A stretch of DNA of 64,000 bases from Bacteroidota bacterium (GCA_033763735.1 JANRJY010000104.1:7738-71737), one strand, 5' to 3'; positions 2,413-20,778 are shown, counted from the first letter of the stretch. Made by a program: numbers and translations. The notes: a model not told the origin generated them from the letters alone.

Positions 2413-2450
2413 CAATAAAAACAAAAAGCCTTACCATTTCTGGCAAGGCT
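2413..2450 (-). terminator. Rho-independent terminator after the FecR-like/CHASE2 operon
   Basis: The minus-strand RNA reads AGCCUUGCC-AGAAAU-GGUAAGGCU (9-bp stem with one G-U pair) followed by UUUUUGUUUUUAUUG. It lies 27 nt downstream of the stop at 2477. Confidence 0.65.
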
Positions 2451-2476
2451 TTCAATCAACAATTTTCTATTAAAAA

Positions 2477-3403
2477 TTATTTTTCGTAAGGATAGAAATC
2501 CAATAGACCATTTTTTGCAAGGAAGTTCATATAAGCACTTTTATACTCAACAACTCCTGGCTCTAATCTGATAGCTGATTCGAAAGCTTTTTTCGCATCA
2601 ACGAACAAGTTATTTTGAGCGTAGAAAGATGCTTTCATCATATAATTTAAAGCCGACTCTTCGTTAAATTCTTTAGCAAACATTGCTTTATCAGAGAAAA
2701 CATCAGGATTTTTTGATTCAATCATTCTTTTGATCACATAGCTGTCTGATTTTAAATCTGCATTAGATTTTACACGTACCATAAGAGTATTATCTTTTGG
2801 CATTTTAATACTATTGAAATCAATTGTGAATGTTGTATCAGTAGTTTCTTTTGAAAGAATTACATCGTCAAACATATTTAATACTTCAACAGTATATCCG
2901 GTAGCTTTAGGATTTTTAGCCCATGAAACCACATTGATGTCTTCAATAACAGAAGAGGTTTTAGGCAAACAAAGTGTAATAGAAGCCGTAGATATTGCTC
3001 TTTCTACCGAACCCGTTACTTTCATGTTTTTCTGATAGTTGGCGTGAATGTCACCACTCTCAGATTTAGTCATTTCTCCAATTACATATTCAGAGTATTT
3101 TTTAGTAATATTACTGTTTTTGGCAACAGCTTTTGCTACTAAATCAGCTACTTTGTAAGTACCTGCTTCTTTAATCTCAACAGTTTTACCTGTAGTATGA
3201 ATTAAACCAAGGTAACTTGCATCACCTACTTTAATTACATCTTTGTCGTTCAATTTTTTACCTGCAATAAGGGCAGTTCCATCTCCAAGTGTGTTTTTAC
3301 CTCTAGAGGCTAATACTTTGAAGGCTTCAGTTTGTGCAAAACTATAGAAGGAAAACGTAAGTCCTGCTATTGTTAAAAGAGTAGATTTGATAATAGTTTT
3401 CAT
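2477..3403 (-). CDS. Secreted FecR-like domain protein with a C-terminal TPR-like region
   Basis: I trimmed the ORF to the internal ATG at 3403, which gives the clean signal peptide MKTIIKSTLLTIAGLTFSFYSFAQ; the track start at 3448 is TTG. A FecR-like stretch is present: LASRGKNTLGDGTALIAGKKLNDKDVIKVGDASYLGLIHTTGKTVEIKEAGTYKV. The C-terminus has TPR-like helices (ALNYMMKASFYAQNNLFVDAKKAFESAIRLEP). Confidence 0.5.
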   Translation of the reverse strand: MKTIIKSTLLTIAGLTFSFYSFAQTEAFKVLASRGKNTLGDGTALIAGKKLNDKDVIKVGDASYLGLIHTTGKTVEIKEAGTYKVADLVAKAVAKNSNITKKYSEYVIGEMTKSESGDIHANYQKNMKVTGSVERAISTASITLCLPKTSSVIEDINVVSWAKNPKATGYTVEVLNMFDDVILSKETTDTTFTIDFNSIKMPKDNTLMVRVKSNADLKSDSYVIKRMIESKNPDVFSDKAMFAKEFNEESALNYMMKASFYAQNNLFVDAKKAFESAIRLEPGVVEYKSAYMNFLAKNGLLDFYPYEK

Positions 3404-3496
3404 TTTGTTTATAGTTGATTGTTGATTGGAATACAATTTAATTTTCAAACATGTATTCTTATTTGTGAATAAAGGTAACCGAAATTGTAATTTTAT

Positions 3497-4795
3497 TTAT
3501 AAATATTTTTTAGTTTTTTTCGACAATACCAGTCCCTGAACTTTTTGTACGACAAAAACAATTCCAGGTTTCGCATATTCATAATAAAGTTCTAAAAAGT
3601 TTCCGAGCACAAATATAAATACCACAGAATAGGTAACATCAATGCTATATCGATAATTTAATGTAATAGCTATTTTAATTCCATATAATACAACCACTTC
3701 TAACAATCCTACAAGCATACTTAATCCATCCCACCATAAATGTATATGATGGTGTATATAAGAAAAAATAACTACGTTAATTAAACAAATAATAATATTC
3801 ATATATAAAGCGTAGTTTTCAGGCATTTCATCAATGTACGTTTCGTTGAGTACCATACTTACTACATTGGCATGGACAGTAACCCCATACATATCCGGAA
3901 ATGACTTGCCGGCAAAGTTTTTGTTTAAAGGCGTATAAAATTTATCTTCATCCCAGTATAAATTGTTGTTAATGGATTCCCCCATGTATCCTAACACTAA
4001 TATTTTTCCGGTTACATACTTTGGATTGAAAGTCCCTTCCATTCCTTCTTGAACATCAATTTTGTTAAATACATCTTTGTGACCAAATGGATCCACTTCT
4101 CCTCCAAAGTTGTTAATATTGCCTCTATAATATATAGTTTCAAGGTCTTTGTTTCGAGCAATAAATTTATCTGCTTTTGCTTTATTAAAAACACTAGCAA
4201 TTTTAACCGGAAAAAATAAATAGGTTGAGTCTTGATATTTTTCAGTTATATGCACTTTTCTTGCAACCCTGAATTCCTTTGCATCAGTAATCATATTTGC
4301 AAATCCGGGCATAGCATATTGCATAAACTTGGGGTGTGAAGTTACTATGCCATTAAGTACACCTGCTGTGTCGCGTTGCATATCAGTAACCAAAACCAAA
4401 TTTTCCGTTTCTGCAAATGCTTGGGCTAATATTGTATCACCATCAGGCAAACCATTTTGTATATAGTATTGCGTCTTATCTTTTATGAATCGAGCATCAA
4501 TGCCTATCACTTTAGGTTTATATTGATTCAAGTTCATTATTAACTGACCAATTTCTCCCCTACTCAAGTTGCCAATATTCACCATAGTAATATTGGTATC
4601 TTTTTTTTGCTCTTCCCTAAAAGCCGTATATACCAAATCATCCACTTCAAATTGATCAAGCGCCTGACCAATAGGATCATATACATCAAAATTAATGTTT
4701 CCAAACAAGTTTTGAACAATTATCAATAACCCAAATACGAATATGGTTCCAAAAAGTACGTCCGCATGAAAAAACTTACCTAACCACTTTTTCAT
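3497..4795 (-). CDS. CHASE2 domain membrane protein with no output domain (paralog 1)
   Basis: N-terminal TM segment. The periplasmic region shows CHASE2 landmarks: ITMVNIGNLSRGEIGQLI...KPKVIGIDARF, NLVLVT, ILVLGYMGE...FYTP...FPDMYGVTVHANV. Three C-terminal TM segments follow, and the protein ends about 35 aa after the last one. Confidence 0.8.
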   Translation of the reverse strand: MKKWLGKFFHADVLFGTIFVFGLLIIVQNLFGNINFDVYDPIGQALDQFEVDDLVYTAFREEQKKDTNITMVNIGNLSRGEIGQLIMNLNQYKPKVIGIDARFIKDKTQYYIQNGLPDGDTILAQAFAETENLVLVTDMQRDTAGVLNGIVTSHPKFMQYAMPGFANMITDAKEFRVARKVHITEKYQDSTYLFFPVKIASVFNKAKADKFIARNKDLETIYYRGNINNFGGEVDPFGHKDVFNKIDVQEGMEGTFNPKYVTGKILVLGYMGESINNNLYWDEDKFYTPLNKNFAGKSFPDMYGVTVHANVVSMVLNETYIDEMPENYALYMNIIICLINVVIFSYIHHHIHLWWDGLSMLVGLLEVVVLYGIKIAITLNYRYSIDVTYSVVFIFVLGNFLELYYEYAKPGIVFVVQKVQGLVLSKKTKKYL

Positions 4796-6147
4796 TCGCT
4801 TTTATTGTCCTTTTGTTTGATATTATTAAAATCAAAATCAGTCAAACCCTGGCTAAGTATATCCTTGGCACTTCCTCTGATAATTTCATTGATTTTTTGT
4901 CGTTTTTCTTCTTCTTTAGAGATTTGGAACTTAACTCCTAATTTTTGCAATGCGATTTTAAATAACCCATAATACAGCTCAAGGAAAGAGCTTGAGACTA
5001 ACGCAAAAACCATTGAAAAATTAAGATCAATCTCTAAATTATAATTACTGAAAACAATTACCGTTACAAATGGAATGGCAATTGTTATCAGCAAGGCGAT
5101 GAGGATACTAAATACATCCCACCATACTGCTGCCGCATGAAATAAAATTGAAAACAAAACTACCACATGAAAACAAATTACAAGATTTAGCAAAAGATTG
5201 TAATACCAAGGTAGCACGTTGATATGGGAATCAGATAATATCATTGAAGCCACATTAGCATAAATTACTGTTTCATACATATCTGGAAAAGTTTTACCAG
5301 CAAACTTGTTGTTCATAGGTGTATAATACTTATCAGTATCCCAGAATTTCTCATTGTAAAAAGTTTCTCCCATATAACCCAATATTACCACTTTACCTTT
5401 CAACATTGAAGGGTCAAAGTTTCCTTCTATCCAATCTTGAGTATCGATTGTGAAAAATTTATCCAGATTGCCTCTGTAATTAATTAATTCAATTTCATTT
5501 TTTCTTGAAATATGAGACGCTGCTTTAGCTGAATCCTTATATTTTATTAATTCAACGGGGAAAAAATGGTCTTCGATTCCATATGTGGTGGATGCAGGAT
5601 AAAACTTTCTTGTAGTTTTAAAATCACGATCTGTAGTAGGCATATTTTTAAACCCTGCAGCTGCATATCGTTCTCCAAACTCTTCTTTATAAACCCAAAA
5701 CAAACTATCAGAGGTAATCATACCTCCCCAAGTCCCTGTTTTTGTATTAAAATCTGTAAGCTGAGTAACAAGCACAAGATTTGGTATGTCCCGCATCGAC
5801 ATTGCCAAAAGGCTATCCTCAAAACCATTTCCCGTTCGTCTGAATATTTTGTTAATTCCAATAACGGCTGGCTGTTGACTTGAAATCTGACGTAACAAAA
5901 GTGCTATATCTGCATTTTCAGCATTACCTATATTAATGATTACAATATTAGTATCCGCATCTGATTCCTTTAATTTTGAAAATCCAATATCTGTAACTTC
6001 AAAATCAGAAATGGCTTCATAAAAAGGATCCATAAGTTCATGATTGATATTTAAAGCTTGTATGCTTACGAATAACAGCACTGCTATGAATATAGAACAG
6101 TAGACATAGTCATTGAAAAAAATCTTTTTTAGTAGCTTTAATAACAC
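4792..6147 (-). CDS. CHASE2 domain membrane protein with no output domain (paralog 2)
   Basis: Same architecture and colinear motifs as paralog 1: IVIINIGNAENADIALLL...QPAVIGINKIF, NLVLVT, VVILGYMGE...YYTP...FPDMYETVIYANV. Apparent GTG start at 6147. Its stop overlaps the downstream paralog start by 4 nt (4792-4795). Confidence 0.8.
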   Translation of the reverse strand: MLLKLLKKIFFNDYVYCSIFIAVLLFVSIQALNINHELMDPFYEAISDFEVTDIGFSKLKESDADTNIVIINIGNAENADIALLLRQISSQQPAVIGINKIFRRTGNGFEDSLLAMSMRDIPNLVLVTQLTDFNTKTGTWGGMITSDSLFWVYKEEFGERYAAAGFKNMPTTDRDFKTTRKFYPASTTYGIEDHFFPVELIKYKDSAKAASHISRKNEIELINYRGNLDKFFTIDTQDWIEGNFDPSMLKGKVVILGYMGETFYNEKFWDTDKYYTPMNNKFAGKTFPDMYETVIYANVASMILSDSHINVLPWYYNLLLNLVICFHVVVLFSILFHAAAVWWDVFSILIALLITIAIPFVTVIVFSNYNLEIDLNFSMVFALVSSSFLELYYGLFKIALQKLGVKFQISKEEEKRQKINEIIRGSAKDILSQGLTDFDFNNIKQKDNKSE

Positions 6148-6231
6148 GTAAAAATATAAAATTTAATCGTTTTGATATTCTTGCATAAATTTGAACGCAT
6201 AAAAATAGCAATAGTTTTAAAATATTTGATA

Positions 6232-8799
6232 ATGAGACTACTAATAATCTGTTTATTGATACTCTTTTGTTTCTTTTCAATATCCTTTGCAAAAGAAAAT
6301 CCTAAGAAAAAGGATTCAAAAAAGGATACTTCAAGTGTGGTAACCAAGCCACCTAAAAAAAAGAAATCGTTTGATGACTCTTTGAAAGCATTTAAAAAAT
6401 TTGACGGACTTTTCAAATTTTATCAAGATACTTCCAATGGAAATATGCTTATGGTAATTCGCAAAAATCAAATTAATAAAGAGTTTATTTATTTTGTGTA
6501 TGCTGAAAATGGATTGCCTAGTTCAAATACTTTTCGAGGAAGTTTTAGGGAAAATCGAATTTTTGCAATTCGAAAGTATTATAACAAAATTGAGTTTTGG
6601 GCACTAAATACCAATTTTTATTTTGATCCAAAAAGTGCTTTAAGCAAATCTTCAAATGGAAACATAAGTAATTCTATTCTTTTAAGTCAAAAAATAATTG
6701 ACACCGACCATGAACTAGGAGAATACCTAATTAATGCTGACGATATTTTTATGGGTGAAATATTGCATAGAATTAAACCTGTCCCTCCAAGAGGTTTACC
6801 TCCTGATGCTTTTTTTTCCTTAGGTAGCATGAGTAGGGCAAAATCAAAGTATTTGAAGGTTAATAACTATCCAGAAAATACCGACATATTGACTGAGTAC
6901 GTTTTTGAAAACCCATACCCAAGTGTAAGTGCGGGTGCAGAAGTAGCTGACGACCGAAATGTTCATATCCAAATCCAACACTCGTTCATAGAAATGCCAG
7001 TTAATAATTTTAAACCTAGATATGATGACCCTCGAATAGGATATTTTACGACTTTAATAACCGAAATGACCTCACCTTCTGCTACACCTTATAAAGATGT
7101 AATTCATAGATGGCATTTGGAAAAAAAAGATTCTTTGTCTGAGATTTCTGAACCTAAAAAGCCGATTAAATGGTGGCTCGAAAATTCTACACCTGTTGAA
7201 TATAGGGAAACTATTAAAAAAGCAGTACTGCAATGGAATTTGGCATTTGAAAAATGCGGATTAAAAAATGCAATAGAAGTTGATATTCAACCAGATACAG
7301 CGAAGTGGGATGCAGGAGACATCAGGTACAATGTAATCAGGTGGACATCGTCACCTAACCCTATTTTCGGAGGCTATGGACCTAGTTTTGTAAACCCCAG
7401 AACAGGTCAGATCCTTGGGGCTGATATTATGATCGAATATCAATTTATTTCTAACCGACTAAAAAGAGAATCTTTATTTATCCCTATTTTAAATGAACAG
7501 AACAATATTCATTTAAATCATTTTTGCAACTTAGCCGAACATTTGCAAATTGAATGTATGTATGGCAAAATTGCAAACAATCTATTAAAAGGGCAAGAAG
7601 TACCTGAAAGTGAATTCATTAAGCAAGCCATTTATTACCTGATTTTACATGAAGTAGGCCATACTTTAGGTTTAAATCATAACATGAAAGCAAGCCAATG
7701 GCTAAGTTCAAAGGAAATACATGATAAAGAAAAAACTGAAAAAGGAGGCATCATTGCATCAGTTATGGATTATCCGGCAGTTAATATTTCGGCAGATAAA
7801 AAAACACAGGGATATTATTTTACCACAATGCCCGGACCATATGACGATTGGGCTATTGAGTTTGGGTACCGCTCATTTAATGTTTCTATTACTGAAAAAA
7901 TAGAAATTGTTAAAATACTGAATCGTTCTACAGAAAAAGCGCTTGCTTTTGGTAACGATGCTGATGATATGCGATCTCCTGGTTTACACATTGATCCAAG
8001 AGTCATGATCAATGATTTGTCATCAGATGCAATTGGCTATATGACTGACAGAATAATGCTAACGAATACCTTAATAGGTTCATTAACAGATAAATATAAG
8101 AAAAATGGGCAAAGTTATCAGGAGCTTAATAATGCATACCAGATATTGACATTAGAATTGGCAAATGCAGCTTCTGTCATTTCTCGCTTTGTAGGTGGCG
8201 TATACGTAGACCGTTCGCTTATTGGTCAAAACACTAAAAACAAACCATTTACTCCTGTACCCTATGCCGAACAAAAAAGGGCCGTAAAAATAATAAACAC
8301 CCATTTCTTTGGTACTGAAGCTTTCAAAACGGATCAAAAACTTTACAACTATTTACAAATACAAAGAAGAGGTTTTAATTTAATGGGCATTAATGAAGAT
8401 CCAAAAATTCATGAAAGGGCCTTAGGGATCCAACGAAGTATTTTAGATCATTGGCTACATCCAGCAGTGCTTAAACGACTTACAGATAGTCAGTTATACG
8501 GTAATAAATATTCAATAAACGAATTTCTTACAGATTTAACTTCAAGTATTTTTGATGAAGATTTAACAAAAATTCCTAATTCTTTCAGATGTCAATTGCA
8601 AATGGAGTATGTATCAAGATTGGCAAATGTTGTAAAATCAGATAATGGGAGTTACGATTCATTTTCAAAAGCTAATTTTACTGCTCAATTACAATCAATT
8701 CAAAACAAATTGAACGCAAACAAAGGCACTGTCAGCGATATTAAAGTGCATCGTAACTATTTGGTTTTATTGATTCAAAAAGCACTGGCTGTGAAATAA
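6232..8799 (+). CDS. Secreted zinc-dependent metalloprotease (metzincin-type HExxHxxGxxH; large Bacteroidota DUF4953/DUF5117-like family)
   Basis: Motif LILHEVGHTLGLNHNMKAS. I moved the start to the ATG at 6232, giving the signal peptide MRLLIICLLILFCFFSISFA; the track start at 6172 is TTG. Confidence 0.85.
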   Translation: MRLLIICLLILFCFFSISFAKENPKKKDSKKDTSSVVTKPPKKKKSFDDSLKAFKKFDGLFKFYQDTSNGNMLMVIRKNQINKEFIYFVYAENGLPSSNTFRGSFRENRIFAIRKYYNKIEFWALNTNFYFDPKSALSKSSNGNISNSILLSQKIIDTDHELGEYLINADDIFMGEILHRIKPVPPRGLPPDAFFSLGSMSRAKSKYLKVNNYPENTDILTEYVFENPYPSVSAGAEVADDRNVHIQIQHSFIEMPVNNFKPRYDDPRIGYFTTLITEMTSPSATPYKDVIHRWHLEKKDSLSEISEPKKPIKWWLENSTPVEYRETIKKAVLQWNLAFEKCGLKNAIEVDIQPDTAKWDAGDIRYNVIRWTSSPNPIFGGYGPSFVNPRTGQILGADIMIEYQFISNRLKRESLFIPILNEQNNIHLNHFCNLAEHLQIECMYGKIANNLLKGQEVPESEFIKQAIYYLILHEVGHTLGLNHNMKASQWLSSKEIHDKEKTEKGGIIASVMDYPAVNISADKKTQGYYFTTMPGPYDDWAIEFGYRSFNVSITEKIEIVKILNRSTEKALAFGNDADDMRSPGLHIDPRVMINDLSSDAIGYMTDRIMLTNTLIGSLTDKYKKNGQSYQELNNAYQILTLELANAASVISRFVGGVYVDRSLIGQNTKNKPFTPVPYAEQKRAVKIINTHFFGTEAFKTDQKLYNYLQIQRRGFNLMGINEDPKIHERALGIQRSILDHWLHPAVLKRLTDSQLYGNKYSINEFLTDLTSSIFDEDLTKIPNSFRCQLQMEYVSRLANVVKSDNGSYDSFSKANFTAQLQSIQNKLNANKGTVSDIKVHRNYLVLLIQKALAVK

Positions 8800-9759: not shown

Positions 9760-12700
9760 TTGAAAAGATTACTACTAATTTTATTTCTTACCATTAATTC
9801 TTTATTTGCTGCAAATCGGTTTTACGTCAGAAATGGCTCTGGTTGTGGTGGCACATTCAACACAACTAGCTGTTGGTCTGCCACTTCGGGTGGTGCATCC
9901 GGAGCCAGTGTACCTACCGCTGCTGATGATGCAATTTTTGATGCCAATTCATTCACAGCCGGAGGAACAATTACCCTTGATGCAAATATGAGTTTCAATA
10001 CACTCGATTTTTTTAATATCAATCAAAACATTACCGTTGCTAATGGAGGAAATAATACCATTACAATTGACAATGTAGTATCAGGATACAGTTTGAGATG
10101 GGCTTCTACTGCAAGTCGTATTTCTACTTTAAATGCCAATTTAACTTTCAATGATGATGCGGTTAACTTTGTTTTTAGCACCCCTGGTACCGGCACGGTA
10201 ACGGTATATGGCCGATTGCAAACAGGGGCATCTTCAGCAGCTACAGGTAACTTTAGTGTAACCGGCTTGTCTGATAAGCAATTTTTTTGGAATGATTGGA
10301 CTACTTCTGAAATTCATTCAGCAATAGCTGTTTTTCAGGGAGTTACCACTTTTGGTGGTAACGCAACAAATACCTGTTGTACTCTTACAAACTTTCATGA
10401 AAATGTTGATTTTTTGAATGATGCTGTTATCAGCGGGTATATCAGTCAATTTTGTACTGATGATGTCAGTGGAACAAATGCACGTTTTTTTGGGAAAACT
10501 ACCTTAAATGAGTGGGTAAGGTTTCATGAACCAGTAAAGTTTTACGGAGCAACCACGGTTACCGGAAGATTCGAACATTGGAGTTCTCCTACCAATAAAA
10601 AAATGTACGTGGCACCAGGCGCGTCACTACTATTTAATGGCCCTCGTAATGGTATCCTTTGGGAGTGTGGAATAAATGCGAATGGTCCGGTTACTATTGC
10701 CCGTTCAAATACAGGCAATGCATATGTAGGATTCTTAGCAAGATATTCAGGCACGTACCCAGATACATTTAACTTTGTAGGAAATGCCATTGATTTTGGT
10801 GATTATATTTCTGATAATGATAATAATCAAGGAGTTGCTATCTATGCTAACCCTGTATACATGACTACAGGCAGTACAATGATTTTAGGTGCCTTTACAT
10901 ATCTTCGATTTGATGGGACTTATGATGCGGATGGTCCAAATACAGGGGCTTGTACAGGTTGCTACACCTATCCTTGGACTTGCCCGGGTACTGGTTACAA
11001 TCGCTCTACTTTCGGCAATTTTCATATGAGACCTTTTGCATATGTACATTTCAATGATGGAAATGCCGTTTGGACTTTTAATACATTTTCAATTACTGGA
11101 AATAACATGGTAGAGTTAGGCTCACAATCCACATGCCAAATGGGAGAAGCGAGTTATCAAATCAAAAATTTAGTATCCTCTGCCACTGCATGTGCAGGAT
11201 ACAATACGATTCGTAATAAAGTACCGGGAATAGGAAATTATTCAAGTACAGGGCCCAGAGGAGGAAATAACGCATTAGTGTCTATTTCAGGTTCAACTAC
11301 TTTAACCGGTACAATTCTTCAGGATATTGTAAATGCAAGCAATAATTCTTTGGTTGGCATAACAGCAACAATAGATTTGGGTGGTAACAGACCCGCATGG
11401 ATAACCAAAAATGGTAATGATTGGAACGGAAGTTCATTTCCACTGAGGAATTCCGGCAATTTTTCTTTCACTGGTGTATCCACTTCTGAAACCTTTTATT
11501 GGATTGGAAAATCCAATGCTAATAACAACTGGAGTAATCCATCCAATTGGTCTTTAAGTTCCGGAGGTCCTCCCAATGCAGGGGGATGTATTCCCTCGAC
11601 AAGGACTAATGTTATTTTTGATGGAAATTCTTATTCAGCAAATACCCAACGAACGGTATTGGATGGGGCTTATCAGTACTGCAAGCAAATGACATGGAAC
11701 CTTCCAGCCTCTGCTTCAGGGGTAATGATGTTTGGAACCATTTCCGGCTCAAAACTTCAAATATGGGATGATCTTAAGTTTAGTCAATATATGATAAATA
11801 GTTTCCTGGGAACCGTAGAATTCAATTCTGAAACTACAACCTCCGGATATACTTTAAATACAATTAACAGTACTACTCTTGATACTTATAATTACAAAGG
11901 TCCGGTTTATTTTAAAAATGCTACTACTCAATGGCAACTTACAAGCGATTTAAAAGCAGCATCAAGCTTTAACATAGTTGCCTCTAAAGTAGATGTTTCA
12001 AATAATGGTACTTCTTCAGGTACCTTTGCTAATATTACTGTTTTGGGAAATTGGTATTTGGAAGGTGCTCAATTTAGCGCTAGAACCGGAACCGTACATT
12101 TTAAAGGAACAAGTACTCAAAGTGTACAAGTATGGGGAAATGATACTTACATGCAAGATGCTTTTTATAATGTCATATTTGAAAATCCTTCAAATTTTAA
12201 CTTAGATAGTTACGATAGCAAAGTTTTTATTGCTCCCGGGGGTAGTGCAAAGTTTGTTAATGGAATAGTTCGAACTAAAACAGATAATGATAGTTATCAT
12301 GGGTTAATATTTATGAAAGGTTCAAAAGCGCTCAATTATCTGGGTCAAGATCTTGCAACTTCAAATTATTATTTGCTTACATCTCCCGGAGGTCCAAATA
12401 ACGCATGGGTGACAGGTGAAGTAGTGAAATGGGGTACTGAAGATTTTGTATTCCCTGTAGGTTCTGATGCATCTTGGTATTTTGGGCATACAGCCACACA
12501 ATACCGACCAATAGCATTAACATCGCTTACCGGCGTATCCGGATTCAATAGTACCAATATCTATAATTCAAGTTATTATATGGGCTCAGGAGGTTGGGCA
12601 ACTACTAATTTTGTTTCTCCTCTTAGTATTGTTGGTGTAAACGAATATTGGAAACTAGGACGAGTAGATATGGGTTGGAATCCAATTAGAGGTAGATGTG

Positions 12701-13794
12701 CCCAACGTGCATCAAATCAAGTTACAATTATTGTTTCCCAACGTAATGTTATTAACGGTGTGGTTACTACTGACGGATTGTATTTAAATCCTTTCAGCGT
12801 TGGTGATATGGTTTATATTAATAACTTTAGTGATATATTATCGGGTGCTGCAAATGGAAATTATTCAGTTGTCGGTGTTAATGGCAACTTTTTGACGGTA
12901 AGTTATCCCGGAGGAAATATTGGAATGTCGTGTAACACCGGGTCAAATACTGAAATCACATTGGTGTACGCTTCTACTCAAAATGTAAGTATTAAACTAC
13001 CATGGAGAGATGGAACTACTGATGCAACACCAAACTTTATAAATAACACTAATGATTACTTGAACTTAAAGTTAGGTATGCGGCTTGATGGTGGTGCAAA
13101 TGACGGTAATTTCGCAGATGCCACCCGGTCAATAATTGGTCCATCAAATTCAAATGCATCAGGAATATTATTAAGTAAAAGTTTTAGCACTTCAACGCTT
13201 ACTGGAGGGTTAAAATCTCGGTTTTTCAACTTTGGTGGCGCCATAACGGTAACTCCATTACCTGTTTTAAATATAATAAACTTTGATGCAATCGTTTACA
13301 ATAAATCAGTAGAGCTTACCTGGAGCTTAAAACATACTAAAAATGATGTAGCATATATAATTCAAAGAAGTAGTGATGCCAGTAATTTTACCGATTTAAT
13401 ATCTGAAAATTCTTCTAAATCAAAAACCGTTTTTTCAAGAACAGATGATGTGCCATTAAAAGGCATTTCGTATTATCGTTTAAAAATTGTGAAAGACAAT
13501 GGAAACCATGAATATAGTGAAATTAAGACTGTTAATTTTGATTCTGAAAGTAATATTTCTCTTTATCCGAATCCAATAGCCAAAGGTACTTTTTTATCAA
13601 TTTACAAAACAAATGATACTCCTACGGAAGGGTTCAAGTTTACTTTAATGGATTTGACAGGCAAAAATATTCTTTCAGGTTGGGTTCAAAATGAAAACAG
13701 TATTCTTATTCCGCAGTATTTGAGTGATGGGGTTTATTTCTTGAAAATAGATGACTCCATTTCATCACTTACCGAACGACTAATAGTTCGATGA
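9760..13794 (+). CDS. Large secreted T9SS cargo protein (beta-helix/adhesin-like, Fn3-like module, C-terminal sorting domain)
   Basis: TTG start directly gives the signal peptide MKRLLLILFLTINSLFA. A W-x-S-G-G-x(n)-P-x(n)-D-x-x-I-F-D-x-N-S motif occurs twice, near aa 39 and aa 590. An Fn3-like segment is present (VELTWSLKHTKNDVAYIIQRS...YYRLKIV). The C-terminus is a T9SS CTD (ISLYPNPIAKGTFLSI...DGVYFLKI...). Confidence 0.8.
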   Translation: MKRLLLILFLTINSLFAANRFYVRNGSGCGGTFNTTSCWSATSGGASGASVPTAADDAIFDANSFTAGGTITLDANMSFNTLDFFNINQNITVANGGNNTITIDNVVSGYSLRWASTASRISTLNANLTFNDDAVNFVFSTPGTGTVTVYGRLQTGASSAATGNFSVTGLSDKQFFWNDWTTSEIHSAIAVFQGVTTFGGNATNTCCTLTNFHENVDFLNDAVISGYISQFCTDDVSGTNARFFGKTTLNEWVRFHEPVKFYGATTVTGRFEHWSSPTNKKMYVAPGASLLFNGPRNGILWECGINANGPVTIARSNTGNAYVGFLARYSGTYPDTFNFVGNAIDFGDYISDNDNNQGVAIYANPVYMTTGSTMILGAFTYLRFDGTYDADGPNTGACTGCYTYPWTCPGTGYNRSTFGNFHMRPFAYVHFNDGNAVWTFNTFSITGNNMVELGSQSTCQMGEASYQIKNLVSSATACAGYNTIRNKVPGIGNYSSTGPRGGNNALVSISGSTTLTGTILQDIVNASNNSLVGITATIDLGGNRPAWITKNGNDWNGSSFPLRNSGNFSFTGVSTSETFYWIGKSNANNNWSNPSNWSLSSGGPPNAGGCIPSTRTNVIFDGNSYSANTQRTVLDGAYQYCKQMTWNLPASASGVMMFGTISGSKLQIWDDLKFSQYMINSFLGTVEFNSETTTSGYTLNTINSTTLDTYNYKGPVYFKNATTQWQLTSDLKAASSFNIVASKVDVSNNGTSSGTFANITVLGNWYLEGAQFSARTGTVHFKGTSTQSVQVWGNDTYMQDAFYNVIFENPSNFNLDSYDSKVFIAPGGSAKFVNGIVRTKTDNDSYHGLIFMKGSKALNYLGQDLATSNYYLLTSPGGPNNAWVTGEVVKWGTEDFVFPVGSDASWYFGHTATQYRPIALTSLTGVSGFNSTNIYNSSYYMGSGGWATTNFVSPLSIVGVNEYWKLGRVDMGWNPIRGRCAQRASNQVTIIVSQRNVINGVVTTDGLYLNPFSVGDMVYINNFSDILSGAANGNYSVVGVNGNFLTVSYPGGNIGMSCNTGSNTEITLVYASTQNVSIKLPWRDGTTDATPNFINNTNDYLNLKLGMRLDGGANDGNFADATRSIIGPSNSNASGILLSKSFSTSTLTGGLKSRFFNFGGAITVTPLPVLNIINFDAIVYNKSVELTWSLKHTKNDVAYIIQRSSDASNFTDLISENSSKSKTVFSRTDDVPLKGISYYRLKIVKDNGNHEYSEIKTVNFDSESNISLYPNPIAKGTFLSIYKTNDTPTEGFKFTLMDLTGKNILSGWVQNENSILIPQYLSDGVYFLKIDDSISSLTERLIVR

Positions 13795-15373: not shown

Positions 15374-18300
15374 TTATTCAAAAGTTTTCCCCAACCAAAA
15401 ATTGCGACTGTAAAGTCGGCTCACTTTCCATTTTTTATTCACCAAGCTCACAGGTAAATATGCAAACCAATCTTTAATTGAGGGTGAACTAAAAAAGATA
15501 TCGTCATCAGTAAAAACTAAATTGTTTTCTTCAGATGCAAGTTTCAAATCGGAATATTCAGAAATTAAATATTCTGATTCGTAATTGGCTATCATTTTAT
15601 TCTTTAAATACCATGAATTACCAAAAACATGGTTTTGAACATCAATTTTATCTGATTTCCCTTCCGATACATTTCGAGCATATGCCAGATATTTGCGAAG
15701 TATCTTAGGTCCTTCATGTAATGTGTTTTCAACCTTTAGTTCCTCAGGCAATATACTTGTCACAATTACAATTTTATCTTTTGCTCTTGTTACAGCAACA
15801 TTCAATCTATTTTCACCACCTACGAGGTTAAGCAGTCCAAATTGAAGATTAAGTTTACCAGCTTTGTCCCTGGCATACCCCACGCTAAACATTATTATAT
15901 CACGTTCGTCCCCCTGAACATTTTCAATATTTTTAATGAACAAATTTTTGGGTTTTTTCCAATGTTGCTTCTGAATTTTTGATTCAATCAGGTTTTCAAT
16001 AAGTATTTGTTGCTGCATATTGAAAGTAACCACCCCGATTTCTTTATCAGGAAAGGCATTTTGATGAATTTCTATTTGACGAATAATTTCTTCGGCCTCA
16101 GTTAAATTGCTGTTATTGTGCCATATGCCATCTACTTTGACGAATTGTATTGCTTTAGCTTCTTGAATTGCCTCGGGAATTAATCTTAACTTATTCTTGT
16201 AAAATTCTTGATTTGAAAATCTGATCAGCTCCGGATATTTGCTTCTATAATGTTCACACAACATAACTTGAGGCAAAAATTTATCAGCCAAATTAAGCAA
16301 TGAATCAATCTCTGTTTCAGGGGTTTCATCACTTTCGTCTTCCCATCGAGGTTTGTACAAATCATTGGGCATGAGCTGCTTATCATCGCCTACGATCATT
16401 ATTTGTTGTGCTCTATAAATGGCTGGTATAGCTTTTTCAACAAAACATTGGGAAGCCTCATCAAATACTACTAAATCAAATTTTGCATCAATATCAAATA
16501 TAGCAGAAACCGTTTCGGGGGACGCTAACCAAACGGGTAACAAATCAGTAACTTCCTCATAATGTGTTTGTATGAGTTTACGCAAAGGCCATATTTTTTT
16601 CTTTTTGGTTACCTGATGTTTCAAATCGCGATAAGTAATCTGATTGCGAAGTCGGTTGAATTCAAGATTTTTGTAGGTATTTTCTCTTGCTTTGATAAGC
16701 ACAATTTCGTTTGCCAATTTTTCCTTTTCAGCAATCAATTTTTGGAGCTTATTTTCGAGATTATTAAATGCAGGTGTTGATACTTTTTGCAATACAGGAT
16801 GCTTATGCTCAACATCTTCAATCCAACTCAGATATGCTTGATTTTGAATTTGATTGCACCATTCATTTGGATTTGTATGGACTAATTGATTTAATAAAGT
16901 CCTTTCGGATGAATTTAAATTTTTAACCAACTGATGATATGCAACAATCGTATCGAAATGCAAATTAAAAAGGCTAGTTATTTTAGTTAAGTTGGATTTT
17001 TCTAAAAATTGCTCAATTACTTTTACCTCAAAATATTTATTCCATTGTATATAATCCAAGTTAAATTCATTGATTACTCCAACAAAATCATTCAGCTTGA
17101 ATATCCAAATATCTAAATGCCTTTTGAACACAATATCAATACTATTAAAAAAGATAGAATTATTCATAAACTCCTGTAATTCAATGCATTTACTCAAATA
17201 GATTGAAAATTTTTCTTTTGAATTTGATTCATAAATATCTAAGCCATACCGATCAAAAAAATAGTCAATTTGCTCAGATAATTTTATAGATTGATTCAAA
17301 TGTTGACTCAAATTTGAAAGCTCTGAAATTTGAAATGTTAAATTGTATTCTTTAAGAATTGTGATTACTTCTTTTCCTTTTTTTGATATCCATTTGAAAT
17401 AAAAATGTGTATAAAAAATGTTCATTTGTGACAATGCATATTCTATTTTCTTTAATTTGGAACATAACAATTCTATTTTATCATACTTAGCACCTTTTTC
17501 GAATAAAACAAGAATACCTTTTATCTTCTTAATTAATTGATTAAGTGCAACTTCAGGTTTTTCATGGTTAAAAACATAAGTTGCAATATCAACAGCATTG
17601 TTATCCTTACAAAAATCATTAAACCGATTGAGCTCCAGATTATGGCTATTAATAGTCATAATCTCAACATATGAAACTTCAAAACCAACTGTATTTAATT
17701 TTTGAGAATGGTTATAAAAAACTGTAGGAGCATTTTTTAATATTTCAAGAATTTTGATTCTATCAAATGTTCCAAAATTGCTATAATCAATTGAATTCCA
17801 ATAGTTTGAATCGTAATCATTTAAAATTATACGGTAAGCAACTATTTCGTTTAATTTAGTTATGAGATTATCTAGTTTGGTTTTATCCAAATTTTTAATA
17901 ATCTCATTGTTTTGATAATTTTTATCAGCAATCGAACAATTCAAATACATTTCCTTTACGGATATTCCATACTTTGAATTTTCAAAAAGTGCATCTTTAA
18001 ATTCATTTAATTCGGAGGTCAAAGCATCAATTTCACGAGATATTTGCAAAAATGATCTTTCCAAATAAATAGCATCCAGTGAGTTATTTGCATTTTGGTA
18101 TGCTTCCAATTGTTCAATTTGATTCAAAAGTGCGTCAAATACCCGCCTTCTATCCGTTTTGAAATCATGAACAACTGTGCAAAAATGTTGCAAACCAGCC
18201 ATTTGAAGCCTTTCATAAATCACGTCCAATGCTACTTTTTTCTGACAAATAACCAATACACGTTTCCGTTTTGCAATCATGTCAGATATCACATTACATA

Positions 18301-19255
18301 TTAGTTGTGATTTGCCTGTTCCGGGAGGACCTTGCACTACCAAACTTGTACCTTCGGCTAATTTACGCAATGCATTTTCCTGATAAGCATCGATTTTAAA
18401 AGGGGTGAATATATTTTCTTCTTTTATTAGTTTGATTTTATCAGAATTCAAAGAGTCGAACCAATCACTAAATGTATTAAAATTACTTTTTTCAATAATT
18501 GAATCATAGTCAGCAGAAATTACCGAACCCGATTGTTGAAAAAATCCTATCAATGCTTCTGGAATTAACTTTAGCTGACCTACACCGTAGTGCAATTCAA
18601 TTTCTCCTTTTTTATAATTGTAAAAAGCTTGAATTTTATTGAGGTATAAATCTTGATTGAAATTAATTTCAAGACTTGATTTTTTTAAAAACTGATAGAG
18701 TTCATTTCTGAATGTCAACAAATCATCAAAATCATTCTCAAAAAAAGCCTCAAAACTTTCAATGTCAACACTTACTTTATTGAAATGCGCATAAGCCAAT
18801 AAAAAACTATGATTAAAAACAGGAGGTTCATCAATTCTTTTGCAAATTTCCCAATGTTTGAAATCATTAATTTGAATTGAAATCGGATAAAAAATTAAAG
18901 GACATCGAACAACACTCCCATCATTAAATTGTCCTGTTACAAATGGGTAACAAATATACAGATCATTAGCCCCAAGTTCATCAAACACAAATTGCTGCTT
19001 ACGTGAAATGTTTCGTAATTTTTTACTTAGTTCATTATTATCTGCATCTCTGCTATCAATATATGGTGCAATTTTGATTGGTTTGTTGGCACAAATTATT
19101 TTTTCTAATATTTCAAAAGAGGTTTGACCTTGAACATAATCCAGTTCGGTCAAATTAAAGTCATTGGCAACAGACAATTTATGCAACACCAACGAACGAT
19201 TGTTTGCGGTAAGATTGGTTAACTTTTTTTGGTATGTTTTTAATATCGAATTCAA
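15374..19255 (-). CDS. Superfamily 1 (Upf1/DNA2-like, AAA_11/AAA_12) helicase with a DUF4011-like N-terminus
   Basis: Walker A is VVQGPPGTGKSQ and Walker B is VVFDEASQ. Late helicase motifs are present (GDDKQLMP, VQGDERDIIMFS, LNVAVTRAKDKIVIVTS). About 600 aa of helical insert lie between motifs I and II. Apparent TTG start. Confidence 0.85.
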   Translation of the reverse strand: MNSILKTYQKKLTNLTANNRSLVLHKLSVANDFNLTELDYVQGQTSFEILEKIICANKPIKIAPYIDSRDADNNELSKKLRNISRKQQFVFDELGANDLYICYPFVTGQFNDGSVVRCPLIFYPISIQINDFKHWEICKRIDEPPVFNHSFLLAYAHFNKVSVDIESFEAFFENDFDDLLTFRNELYQFLKKSSLEINFNQDLYLNKIQAFYNYKKGEIELHYGVGQLKLIPEALIGFFQQSGSVISADYDSIIEKSNFNTFSDWFDSLNSDKIKLIKEENIFTPFKIDAYQENALRKLAEGTSLVVQGPPGTGKSQLICNVISDMIAKRKRVLVICQKKVALDVIYERLQMAGLQHFCTVVHDFKTDRRRVFDALLNQIEQLEAYQNANNSLDAIYLERSFLQISREIDALTSELNEFKDALFENSKYGISVKEMYLNCSIADKNYQNNEIIKNLDKTKLDNLITKLNEIVAYRIILNDYDSNYWNSIDYSNFGTFDRIKILEILKNAPTVFYNHSQKLNTVGFEVSYVEIMTINSHNLELNRFNDFCKDNNAVDIATYVFNHEKPEVALNQLIKKIKGILVLFEKGAKYDKIELLCSKLKKIEYALSQMNIFYTHFYFKWISKKGKEVITILKEYNLTFQISELSNLSQHLNQSIKLSEQIDYFFDRYGLDIYESNSKEKFSIYLSKCIELQEFMNNSIFFNSIDIVFKRHLDIWIFKLNDFVGVINEFNLDYIQWNKYFEVKVIEQFLEKSNLTKITSLFNLHFDTIVAYHQLVKNLNSSERTLLNQLVHTNPNEWCNQIQNQAYLSWIEDVEHKHPVLQKVSTPAFNNLENKLQKLIAEKEKLANEIVLIKARENTYKNLEFNRLRNQITYRDLKHQVTKKKKIWPLRKLIQTHYEEVTDLLPVWLASPETVSAIFDIDAKFDLVVFDEASQCFVEKAIPAIYRAQQIMIVGDDKQLMPNDLYKPRWEDESDETPETEIDSLLNLADKFLPQVMLCEHYRSKYPELIRFSNQEFYKNKLRLIPEAIQEAKAIQFVKVDGIWHNNSNLTEAEEIIRQIEIHQNAFPDKEIGVVTFNMQQQILIENLIESKIQKQHWKKPKNLFIKNIENVQGDERDIIMFSVGYARDKAGKLNLQFGLLNLVGGENRLNVAVTRAKDKIVIVTSILPEELKVENTLHEGPKILRKYLAYARNVSEGKSDKIDVQNHVFGNSWYLKNKMIANYESEYLISEYSDLKLASEENNLVFTDDDIFFSSPSIKDWFAYLPVSLVNKKWKVSRLYSRNFWLGKTFE

Positions 19256-19308: not shown

Positions 19309-20778
19309 TTATTTGGGCAAATGTTTGTGTCGGTTGGGAATGGTTAAAGTAAATACCGATCCTTCTCCATATTCAGATTTCACCTCAATTGTACCATGCA
19401 ATTTGTACACAATTTGTTGAACCACATATAATCCTAAACCGGAACCTCCATTATTATCTGCTCCTTTAAAAAACATGTCAAATACTTTATCAATATACTG
19501 CGGCTTTATTCCAATACCATTATCAATAAACGATACAACCGCAACATCTTCATTTACATTAATATTGATTTTGATAAAAGAGTCAGCCATTTTTAGATTT
19601 TGAAACTTTATTGCGTTTGAAAGTATATTGCTAAATAATATAGATATACGCATTTTATCAGATACAAAATCGGCATTTTGGCTTACTGAAAATATTTTTT
19701 GAATTCTATTAAAATATTCTTTTTCCTGAAGCATGTCTATTTGATCATGATAAATTTCTTCAAAATCGACCAAATCAAACTCAATATCCATTTTATTGTT
19801 TCTGGAGTAATTAGTCATGTCAGACACATAATTGTCCAATTTTTCGACAGAAATATTTATTAAGTCAAGATATTTTACCTTTTTCAGATCGTCTTTCTCC
19901 ATTTTTATGAGATTAACCAACCCTTTAATGGATTTCATCGGTGATTTCAAATCGTGTGAAGCACGATATAAAAAATTATCGAGTTCCGTATTTGCCTTAA
20001 CTAGTTCAATTTCAGCTAATTTTCTATCGTCTATAGGAGTAGCAATAGCCAATAAAAACTCAGGTTTTTTTGAATCATCCAAAGAAATAATTCTCTGGCG
20101 CATTTGCACCCATTGAATAGAGTTATCTTTACATTTCACCCTAAACTCAACTTCTTCCGGCAGACTACTTTTATTTTCAAGTACTCTTTTCCAATGTTCG
20201 TCCATTAATTGTGAATCATCTGAATGAATCAAATCAGGTGGACTAAGTGATAAAAATTCATCCCTGGAGTAGCCAAATACCATGTCTTTATTAAAATAAA
20301 TCGATTTTTTTGATTTCATGTCAATCAAGTTGATAATATCAGGAGAAAAATCAGCAATCATCTTGAATTTTTCTTCATTATATCTTAAAATGTCATAAAC
20401 AGGAGTTTCTTTAGAAACAGCATCTGCGTTCTTTTTAAAAGAATTTGCATTGATAGCTGAATCAATTACTGTAAATCCGTCTTTTGATTTAAGTATTTCC
20501 AATTGGTTTGAATCACTATGTTGATTCAAAATCAATACTGGTATTTTGGTTGTATAATTTGAAATATAATTAAATACCTGTAAACACAATTTTTCAGTAA
20601 TTGCATGAAAAAACACTACTAATGCACTTGGTATGGTGTCTTTTATAATTTTTTCAAACGAATTTATTGTAGAAATATCACCCAAAACACCATTTTTAAG
20701 ATCATTAAAATAATAATCTGATTGGTTGGAACCGGAAAGGTTATATCCAACTAGGAGTATGTTACTATTGGCTATCAC
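19309..20778 (-). CDS. Cytoplasmic PAS sensor histidine kinase with an N-terminal degenerate receiver-like domain
   Basis: H-box RASHDLKSPMKSIKG. HATPase motifs are present (NILSNAIKF, DNGIGI, GGSGLGLYVV). A PAS-like segment lies at aa 130-250. The N-terminal 110 aa is REC-shaped but lacks the acidic pocket. GTG start. Confidence 0.85.
   Translation of the reverse strand: MIANSNILLVGYNLSGSNQSDYYFNDLKNGVLGDISTINSFEKIIKDTIPSALVVFFHAITEKLCLQVFNYISNYTTKIPVLILNQHSDSNQLEILKSKDGFTVIDSAINANSFKKNADAVSKETPVYDILRYNEEKFKMIADFSPDIINLIDMKSKKSIYFNKDMVFGYSRDEFLSLSPPDLIHSDDSQLMDEHWKRVLENKSSLPEEVEFRVKCKDNSIQWVQMRQRIISLDDSKKPEFLLAIATPIDDRKLAEIELVKANTELDNFLYRASHDLKSPMKSIKGLVNLIKMEKDDLKKVKYLDLINISVEKLDNYVSDMTNYSRNNKMDIEFDLVDFEEIYHDQIDMLQEKEYFNRIQKIFSVSQNADFVSDKMRISILFSNILSNAIKFQNLKMADSFIKININVNEDVAVVSFIDNGIGIKPQYIDKVFDMFFKGADNNGGSGLGLYVVQQIVYKLHGTIEVKSEYGEGSVFTLTIPNRHKHLPK

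Follow-up and report, generated by a model that had tools for sequence, protein, structure and literature searches.

Stand-alone CHASE2 proteins encoded beside an MtxA-like secreted protein in Bacteroidota

CHASE2 is among the commonest bacterial extracytoplasmic sensor domains; to our knowledge, neither its ligand nor its mechanism has been established, and we know of no solved structure. Here we describe a locus in a 64,000-nucleotide stretch of DNA from a Bacteroidota bacterium (GCA_033763735.1, JANRJY010000104.1:7738-71737), hereafter the window, where two CHASE2 genes without a fused output domain, CHASE2-A and CHASE2-B (A and B), are followed by the gene for a secreted protein that we call X. 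The closest known system is that of Magnetospirillum, in which a conserved CHASE2 adenylate cyclase gene follows mtxA, the gene for a secreted protein of ~313 amino acids (aa) of known structure (4Z29) (PMC4439547). The Burkholderia "BiofilmReg" operon comprises a response regulator, a periplasmic protein with LysM and FecR domains, and a CHASE2 histidine kinase (PMC5192318), and a gene cluster of Campylobacterota comprises a CHASE2 adenylate cyclase, a FecR-domain protein, a TPR protein, and a phosphodiesterase (PMC9239204). Sinorhizobium meliloti has the CHASE2 cyclases CyaD1, CyaD2, and CyaK with the outer-membrane protein NsrA (PMC13001267 and references therein). In the literature we found no description of output-less CHASE2 proteins paired with MtxA-like proteins.

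Both A and B matched the Pfam CHASE2 model (PF05226), scoring 58.3 bits (E-value 1e-15) and 73.3 bits (3e-20), respectively, against a gathering cutoff of 26.3; their relatives scored 51-84 bits. No second Pfam or NCBIfam domain was detected in either protein (NCBIfam has no model for either), and a fused cytoplasmic output, be it a cyclase, a histidine kinase, GGDEF/EAL, a Ser/Thr kinase, or an N-terminal caspase, is absent from both by Pfam and NCBIfam. In this they depart from CHASE2 receptors as first described, where the domain is the sensor module of multidomain signaling proteins. Hydropathy and AlphaFold agree on the topology: one N-terminal transmembrane (TM) helix after a very short N terminus (8-12 aa), a ~295-aa alpha/beta domain in the periplasm, and three further TM helices at the C terminus. 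The first TM helix of A spans residues ~9-27, and its charged cytoplasmic tail has ~60 aa; the tail of B has ~30 aa. The AlphaFold2 model of B (predicted local distance difference test, pLDDT, 90; predicted TM-score, pTM, 0.88) has helices at 11-31, 326-350, 355-381, and 388-431, and this high-confidence CHASE2 model has no meaningful neighbor in the PDB (best E-value 0.17, TM-score <0.2). A preliminary description of the locus had already assigned both proteins to CHASE2, with one plus three TM helices, a periplasmic region of ~300 aa, and no output domain; these assignments hold.

A and B are complete paralogs rather than pieces of one broken gene, as the preliminary description had also supposed: they are 36% identical end to end, from the N-terminal TM helix through the last one, and all 16 family-invariant residues are kept in both. 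A homology search returned 417 relatives, all 347-494 aa long, and among the matches listed CHASE2 was the sole domain. Most of these CHASE2-only relatives belong to Cytophagales, Cyclobacteriaceae, Marinoscillum, and related Bacteroidota, a lineage in which the output-less form is the rule. The stand-alone family, which is monophyletic, is best conserved in the periplasmic domain (0.55), less so in the TM region (0.48), and least in the tail (0.28); the tail ranges in length from 2 to 62 aa, and no cryptic conserved output is present in it. Core residues common to cyclase- or kinase-linked CHASE2 proteins are D100, D120, L123, F195, K264, G269, D284, and T288, together with P289, G304, A309, and E402, the last in the fourth TM helix (TM4). 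Another, polar set is invariant in the stand-alone family only: D53, R214, E219, G225-N226, N291, G296, D301, H308, and D356.

The third protein, X, consists of a signal peptide (residues 1-23), an N-terminal beta domain (26-84), a poorly ordered linker, an immunoglobulin (Ig)/fibronectin type III (Fn3)-like sandwich (149-226), and four TPR-like helices (233-297) with weak TPR profile matches; its AlphaFold2 model has a pLDDT of 80. When this model was compared with the PDB by Foldseek, the top two matches were the two chains 4z29_B and 4z29_A (E-value 1.6e-5, TM-score on the target 0.61, 171 columns), that is, the Ig-like and TPR C-terminal domain of Magnetospirillum MtxA. Profile-profile comparison by hhalign of 80 X sequences with 19 MtxA orthologs gave a probability of 96.2% and an E-value of 2.3e-9 over 250 columns; the alignment pairs X 21-294 with MtxA 22-284 and thus takes in the N-terminal domain (Pfam DUF7354). 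Because it spans almost the whole length of both families, X is a remote, full-length homolog of MtxA. The most conserved motif of X, the invariant KNMKVTGSVER (~125-135, with invariant R135), lies in the linker, the one region of X that the monomer model cannot order.

The relationship is distant. In Pfam, the architecture of MtxA is DUF7354 (PF24045), MtxA_IG-like (PF22433), and MtxA_C (PF22121), and X itself matched none of these three models; among 80 X-family members, sub-threshold matches were seen to MtxA_C in 9 (best E-value 0.0018) and to DUF7354 in 2. At the sites of two MtxA motifs, KDDN(D/E)MRPLLI and the L-x-P-G-x-H "histidine corner", the X consensus has unrelated residues, and a scan with the former motif recovered Magnetospirillum-type loci only. 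A sequence search of the PDB with X profiles gave generic TPR matches and did not reach 4z29, and tblastn of MtxA against plasmids gave no match. The preliminary description had recognized the signal peptide and TPR-like helices of X correctly; it had also called the protein FecR-like, for which there is no profile signal. The FecR model (PF04773) had no match at E ≤ 1 in X, in the 80 family members, or in MtxA, and none at E ≤ 10 in nine isolated N-terminal domains of the X family. No FecR-type structure was among the top 50 Foldseek matches of the whole X model, in a search in which the 60-residue N-terminal domain was not run alone. FecR anti-sigma proteins keep their N-terminal domain in the cytoplasm and their FecR domain in the periplasm, with a single TM helix, whereas X has no cytoplasmic domain and starts directly with a signal peptide that can be cleaved. 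With all four profile tests negative, we rejected the FecR-like assignment.

The X family is large: an exhaustive profile search found 2,041 representatives at 50% identity with E ≤ 1e-3, and 616 with E ≤ 1e-30. Among the 150 matches listed, almost all were ~300-320 aa long, and those named in their source were "hypothetical proteins". Public records label the proteins of the locus "CHASE2 domain-containing protein" and, in the case of X, "hypothetical protein".

The conserved, ancestral, and widespread unit is one CHASE2 gene with X, a pair rather than a triad. X adjoins a CHASE2 gene in the window and in 27 of the 39 other informative loci (29 of 39 if a divergent pair and a fusion are counted). 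The order CHASE2 then X is seen in L001/2, L005, L006, L007, L008, L009, and L032; a single CHASE2 gene directly precedes X in loci of Thermonemataceae, Cytophagaceae, and Marinoscillum and on a Bernardetia plasmid. The stop and start codons of such pairs often overlap, and the identity of X, where tested, was supported by an hhalign probability of 100%. Among the 31 metagenome loci with enough upstream sequence, a co-directional CHASE2 gene lies upstream of X in 21 (18 single, 3 tandem double), a divergent CHASE2 gene accompanies it in one, and a fusion occurs in another. The triad of the preliminary description is therefore local, although its link between CHASE2 and a secreted partner proved widespread: tandem CHASE2 genes are restricted to the window and its close relatives L001/L002 and L034-L036, whose X proteins are 67-77% identical to that of the window. 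Orthologs of A occupy the same upstream position in L001, L034, and L036. Because the A and B clades are sisters and the order of the copies is retained, a single tandem duplication of CHASE2 in the sub-lineage of the window accounts for the pair.

In some lineages, the two proteins are encoded by one gene. In L079 (31-2316), the CHASE2 open reading frame (ORF) continues in frame into X, and the signal-peptide-like hydrophobic segment of X follows the lysine-rich CHASE2 tail, giving five hydrophobic segments in all. By sequence, the X segment would be a fifth TM helix, which would put X in the periplasm beside the CHASE2 domain. A search with the L079 protein found six fusion clusters of 729-768 aa, which cover 97-100% of that protein at identities down to 35% (P0308-P0313; L084:6001-8226; L085:6001-8253), in metagenome-assembled genomes of Kapabacteria and others of the FCB group; in the Kapabacteria genomes the contigs reach 2.2 Mb. 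Even in the most distant fusion, the C-terminal half is X (hhalign probability 99.5%), and the motif VTGAVER is kept. The junction in P0313 retains a signal-peptide-like "AQ" site, where the fusion might be cleaved after insertion. The architecture of the fusion is therefore stable, and it argues strongly for a joint, physical action of CHASE2 and X. Genes encoding the fusion are monocistronic, and their neighbors are unrelated housekeeping genes; the module is thus self-contained.

We also recovered mtxA loci by means of the published KDDN(D/E)MRPLLI motif (n = 22, L010-L031). A CHASE2 class III adenylate cyclase gene directly follows mtxA in all 22 (e.g., L012:1900-5004, L014, L020, L017). 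Since the hosts include the non-magnetotactic Magnetospirillum fulvum and M. molischianum, MtxA is not specific to magnetotactic bacteria; mtxA was also found in Phaeospirillum and Terasakiella, and one locus (L029) lies on a contig binned as Actinomycetota.

The features of the locus are given in Table 1. A, B, and X are three co-transcribed genes, and both their common minus-strand orientation and the overlap of 4 nucleotides (nt) between the stop codon of A and the start codon of B (ATGA, 4792-4795), reported in the preliminary description, were confirmed. Two of its other placements have to be revised. Mechanically, the ORF of X reaches back to a TTG at 3448 (2477-3448, 323 aa), but its true start is most likely the ATG at 3403 (MKTIIK...SFA|Q), because a signal peptide with a conserved Gln follows that codon and homologs are ~308 aa long (300-320); the A|Q end of the signal peptide is typical of Bacteroidota. 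The gap before X is therefore ~93 nt rather than 48. The terminator reported after X is a real hairpin that had been put at 2413-2450, slightly off its actual position.

Table 1. Features of the CHASE2-X locus in the window
Feature	Position	Strand	Description
CHASE2-A	4792..6147	minus	ORF, 451 aa, GTG start; upstream paralog
CHASE2-B	3497..4795	minus	ORF, 432 aa; downstream paralog
X	2477..3403	minus	308-aa secreted (periplasmic) protein, MtxA family; ATG at 3403 (most likely start)
Terminator-like hairpin	2424..2453	minus	13-bp stem, 4-nt loop, T-run; 24 nt past the X stop
B-X spacer	3404..3496	minus	93 nt; holds the GGTTACCT block
Divergent intergenic region	6148..6231	no strand	separates CHASE2-A from the DUF5117/DUF4953 met-zincin gene; presumed to be where the operon's promoter lies

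Within the B-X spacer, the GGTTACCT block (3473-3480, minus strand) is invariant in all double-CHASE2 relatives, while the rest of the spacer is divergent. Its copies (L001:9915-9922, L034:4429-4436, L035:1773-1780, L036:4401-4408) stand in the context T[TC]GGTTACCTTTA, ~60-100 nt before the start of X in double-CHASE2 loci. With 3 matches in the window versus 1.2 expected, the block is not a repeated element there; it may serve X as an internal promoter or operator. The spacer has no significant RNA structure (fold z-score -0.65, no better than shuffles), and the intergenic regions gave no credible Rfam match: there were two sub-threshold matches (E-value up to 1), neither of them in the B-X spacer. 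A sub-threshold match to mir-2780, a eukaryotic miRNA family, at 6301-6390 (26 bits versus a gathering cutoff of 95.5) lies inside the met-zincin coding sequence and is almost certainly a chance match in AT-rich DNA.

Two neighbors had been put forward as possible functional partners of the cassette. The PorE/CHU_0125-like TPR-PD40-OmpA protein encoded at 431-2353, whose scores of 296 and 270 bits do not reach the NCBIfam equivalog cutoffs, has its gene next to the cassette in the window only; L062, the one other locus with a homolog, has it ~2.4 kb downstream of X. The DUF5117/DUF4953 met-zincin, the metalloprotease of the preliminary description, is divergently encoded beside the cassette in all four assessable double-CHASE2 loci (including L001, L034, and L036) and is absent from all single-CHASE2 and fusion loci; shared ancestry explains its conservation equally well. 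With synteny limited to the window or its closest relatives, we rejected both as partners. We also rejected, as a candidate output, the PAS kinases encoded near L006 and L008 and one located 13 kb away in the window, which have only generic kinase-core similarity. A 1344-aa protein encoded at 9760-13794 has a weak match to a type IX secretion system (T9SS) C-terminal sorting domain (26.8 bits, just under the 27-bit cutoff); together with the PorE-like match, it suggests an organism with type IX secretion. Farther along the window are a gene for a 1293-aa DUF4011/AAA_11/AAA_12 helicase-like protein (15374-19255), beside that of a cytoplasmic PAS histidine kinase (19309-20778), and a giant ORF of 3126 aa (21204-30584).

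Some other neighborhoods of CHASE2-X pairs recur. A gene for MeaB, a methylmalonyl-CoA mutase-associated GTPase, is divergent beside CHASE2-X in L005 (5506-6504), L007 (4874-5857), and L032 (3667-4683), loci from three different families (Thermonemataceae, Marinoscillum, and Bernardetia), and in another clade, comprising L008, L009, and one further contig, the divergent neighbors encode a biopterin-dependent hydroxylase and a 4HBT thioesterase. Both neighborhoods are probably clade-level synteny. A gene for SprA (T9SS) lies near the X homolog of Eisenibacter elegans.

With slightly more belief than doubt, we favor the reading that the locus encodes a self-contained CHASE2-type envelope receptor module without a fused transmitter, in which X would be a co-receptor, A and B a heterodimer, and the output contact-based. 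X would bind the periplasmic face of CHASE2, perhaps docking by its invariant unstructured VTGSVER linker motif, since the most conserved motif of the protein is disordered in the monomer model, as is typical of segments that fold on binding. The Ig-like and TPR surfaces of X would capture or present a ligand or another envelope protein. An accessory role of this kind is plausible because published CHASE2 receptors depend on envelope proteins (NsrA, LysM-FecR, FecR plus TPR). CHASE2 proteins normally act as dimers, and on this ground we infer, as pure inference, that A and B would probably form a heterodimer in place of the ancestral homodimer. The output would reach an unlinked partner by protein contacts in the membrane or periplasm and not by way of a cytoplasmic enzymatic domain, because the periplasmic domain and the TM bundle, including the TM4 glutamate, are conserved and the tail is not; the recurrent fusions of CHASE2 with its partner lend indirect support to signaling by protein contact. 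For a putative complex of A, B, and X, the overlap and coupling of the genes and the six fusion clusters are likewise indirect evidence.

Several findings weigh against this reading. No output partner is genetically linked to the cassette or to the fusion genes, and, with no structural neighbor of the CHASE2 model in the PDB, the fold lends the mechanism no support. Identity between the stand-alone family and cyclase-linked CHASE2 is no more than 16-19%, and the former has invariant polar residues of its own; its biochemical role could differ. In Magnetospirillum, the mtxA mutant had no phenotype (PMC4439547). X can also occur apart from CHASE2: 8 of the 31 metagenome loci have no CHASE2 gene, and in 7 of them (L055, L059, L066, L067, L070, L072, and L074; e.g., L074:51-5364) an X paralog comes last in a conserved TerB-ABC-2 transporter operon, after a 1010-aa TerB + ABC_tran + ABC-2 membrane protein and unknown proteins of 285 aa and ~148 aa. 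The eighth, L081, has a different context. MtxA-like proteins may thus serve other membrane machines too. In Eisenibacter elegans (L003:8001-8933), X stands alone, with no CHASE2 gene within 8 kb. The two ORFs upstream of it (264 and 114 aa) were considered as degraded CHASE2 and rejected, having no CHASE2 signal and no Pfam match.

The main rival explanation is that CHASE2 and X form a non-signaling envelope machine or scaffold that binds, modifies, or tethers a polymer or lipid: the CHASE2 alpha/beta domain would be a binding or enzymatic module and X its adaptor, and the output-bearing receptors would be derived. This would agree with the absence of an output domain, of a conserved tail, and of a linked signaling gene, with the stand-alone family's own invariant polar residues, and with the X paralogs that go with an ABC-2 transporter operon in place of CHASE2; moreover, a very large family whose two-gene or fused architecture is stable looks like a housekeeping component of the envelope. 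We nevertheless regard it as rather doubtful, given that the family still has the canonical CHASE2 core and the TM4 glutamate of true receptors, that the homologous MtxA pairs with a bona fide cyclase receptor, and that no structural similarity to any enzyme or transporter was found in the PDB. A farther-reaching possibility, and in our judgment an unlikely one, is that the CHASE2 and MtxA-like pair is the ancestral autonomous CHASE2 device, to which cyclase, kinase, and GGDEF outputs were later fused. Such a device could be a ligand-gated or enzymatic machine acting through the membrane glutamate and the periplasmic polar site, or else a relay of intramembrane contacts, and MtxA-like proteins would be the long-sought ligand-presenting co-receptors of CHASE2 across phyla.

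The receptor-module reading that we favor has further competitors, which fare worse. Truncated regulators often evolve in receptor families, and a complete sensor and TM module without a transmitter is what a decoy or modulator subunit, heterodimerizing with full-length CHASE2 receptors encoded elsewhere, would look like. Such a role is very improbable for a monophyletic family this distant (16-19% identity) from output-bearing CHASE2, with a dedicated and sometimes fused partner; no full-length CHASE2 receptor was found in the window or in any related locus. We give equally poor prospects to a trans-envelope signaling chain in which a FecR-like protein links the CHASE2 pair to the PorE-like protein and the DUF4953 metalloprotease. 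It draws on the FecR-domain proteins that accompany CHASE2 receptors in other phyla and on the met-zincin gene's position in the double-CHASE2 loci; against it stand the lack of any FecR signal in X, its family, or its isolated N-terminal domains, an OmpA gene found beside the cassette only in the window, and a met-zincin missing from single-CHASE2 and fusion loci. The FecR membership of X and the OmpA synteny are largely refuted. Finally, the two ORFs could be seen as remnants of a disrupted or truncated receptor gene, as pseudogenes, or as an assembly artifact, for which the absent output domain is the sole support. Each ORF is complete, with one N-terminal TM helix, CHASE2, and three C-terminal TM helices, and keeps the invariant residues; the orthologs of each copy are conserved in order across several independent assemblies, and there are hundreds of homologs of the same length. 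This last explanation is refuted.

By itself, the locus reveals no new principle. What it leads to is a large uncharacterized family (~2,000 clusters at 50% identity), tied to MtxA by homology and coupled to CHASE2 by operon and by fusion, and a generalization of the CHASE2-MtxA adjacency, which had earlier been noted only in magnetotactic bacteria. This points to MtxA-type proteins as dedicated co-receptors of CHASE2, not as magnetotaxis factors. As minimal systems, the output-less and fused forms lend themselves to the study of CHASE2 binding and transmembrane signaling, and the A/B duplication provides a natural experiment on CHASE2 dimer function.

Among known systems, the cyanobacterial CHASE2-DUF928-CHAT clusters resemble the locus in having the gene of a small secreted protein directly downstream of a CHASE2 gene, but the CHASE2 protein there is longer (643 aa). 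In the example from the Nostoc flagelliforme plasmid pNFSY04 (L083:4749-6680), a response regulator, DUF928, and a CHAT protease are encoded around it, and its ~290 C-terminal residues, without a Pfam match at E ≤ 0.001, may be an unrecognized output domain. DUF928 was considered as a relative of X and rejected, since the hhalign probability (3.6%) was not significant despite two weak matches in X-family members. A CHASE2 kinase locus on a Cupriavidus megaplasmid, considered for a possible FecR partner, was likewise set aside: nothing could be identified there beyond a response regulator and the kinase. In S. meliloti, as here, one organism has several paralogous CHASE2 proteins, and the system illustrates in principle how CHASE2 receptors perceive a signal via an accessory envelope protein; there, however, the accessory protein NsrA is an outer-membrane beta-barrel rather than a periplasmic protein like MtxA, and the output is cyclic AMP (cAMP).

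The Campylobacterota cluster links CHASE2 to beta-rich and TPR extracytoplasmic proteins, two elements that X joins in one chain, but it has a cyclase output and a cAMP phosphodiesterase, and X has no detectable FecR homology. In the BiofilmReg operon, too, a CHASE2 sensor is co-transcribed with a secreted accessory protein with a presumed role in signal reception; that protein carries LysM and FecR, both absent from X, and its CHASE2 partner carries PAS-HisKA-HATPase and has a cognate regulator, neither of which is present here. From the mtxA operon, the locus differs in that CHASE2 has no cyclase or other output and its gene is duplicated, that the partner gene lies downstream of CHASE2 rather than upstream as in Magnetospirillum, and that X falls below the thresholds of DUF7354, MtxA_IG-like, and MtxA_C and lacks the KDDNDMRPLLI and histidine-corner motifs. 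Even so, the two systems share a secreted protein of ~310 aa with a beta domain followed by Ig/Fn3-like and TPR-like parts, W161 and Y170 at equivalent positions in the Ig domains of X and MtxA, and a partner gene immediately beside that of a CHASE2 membrane protein with one plus three TM helices.

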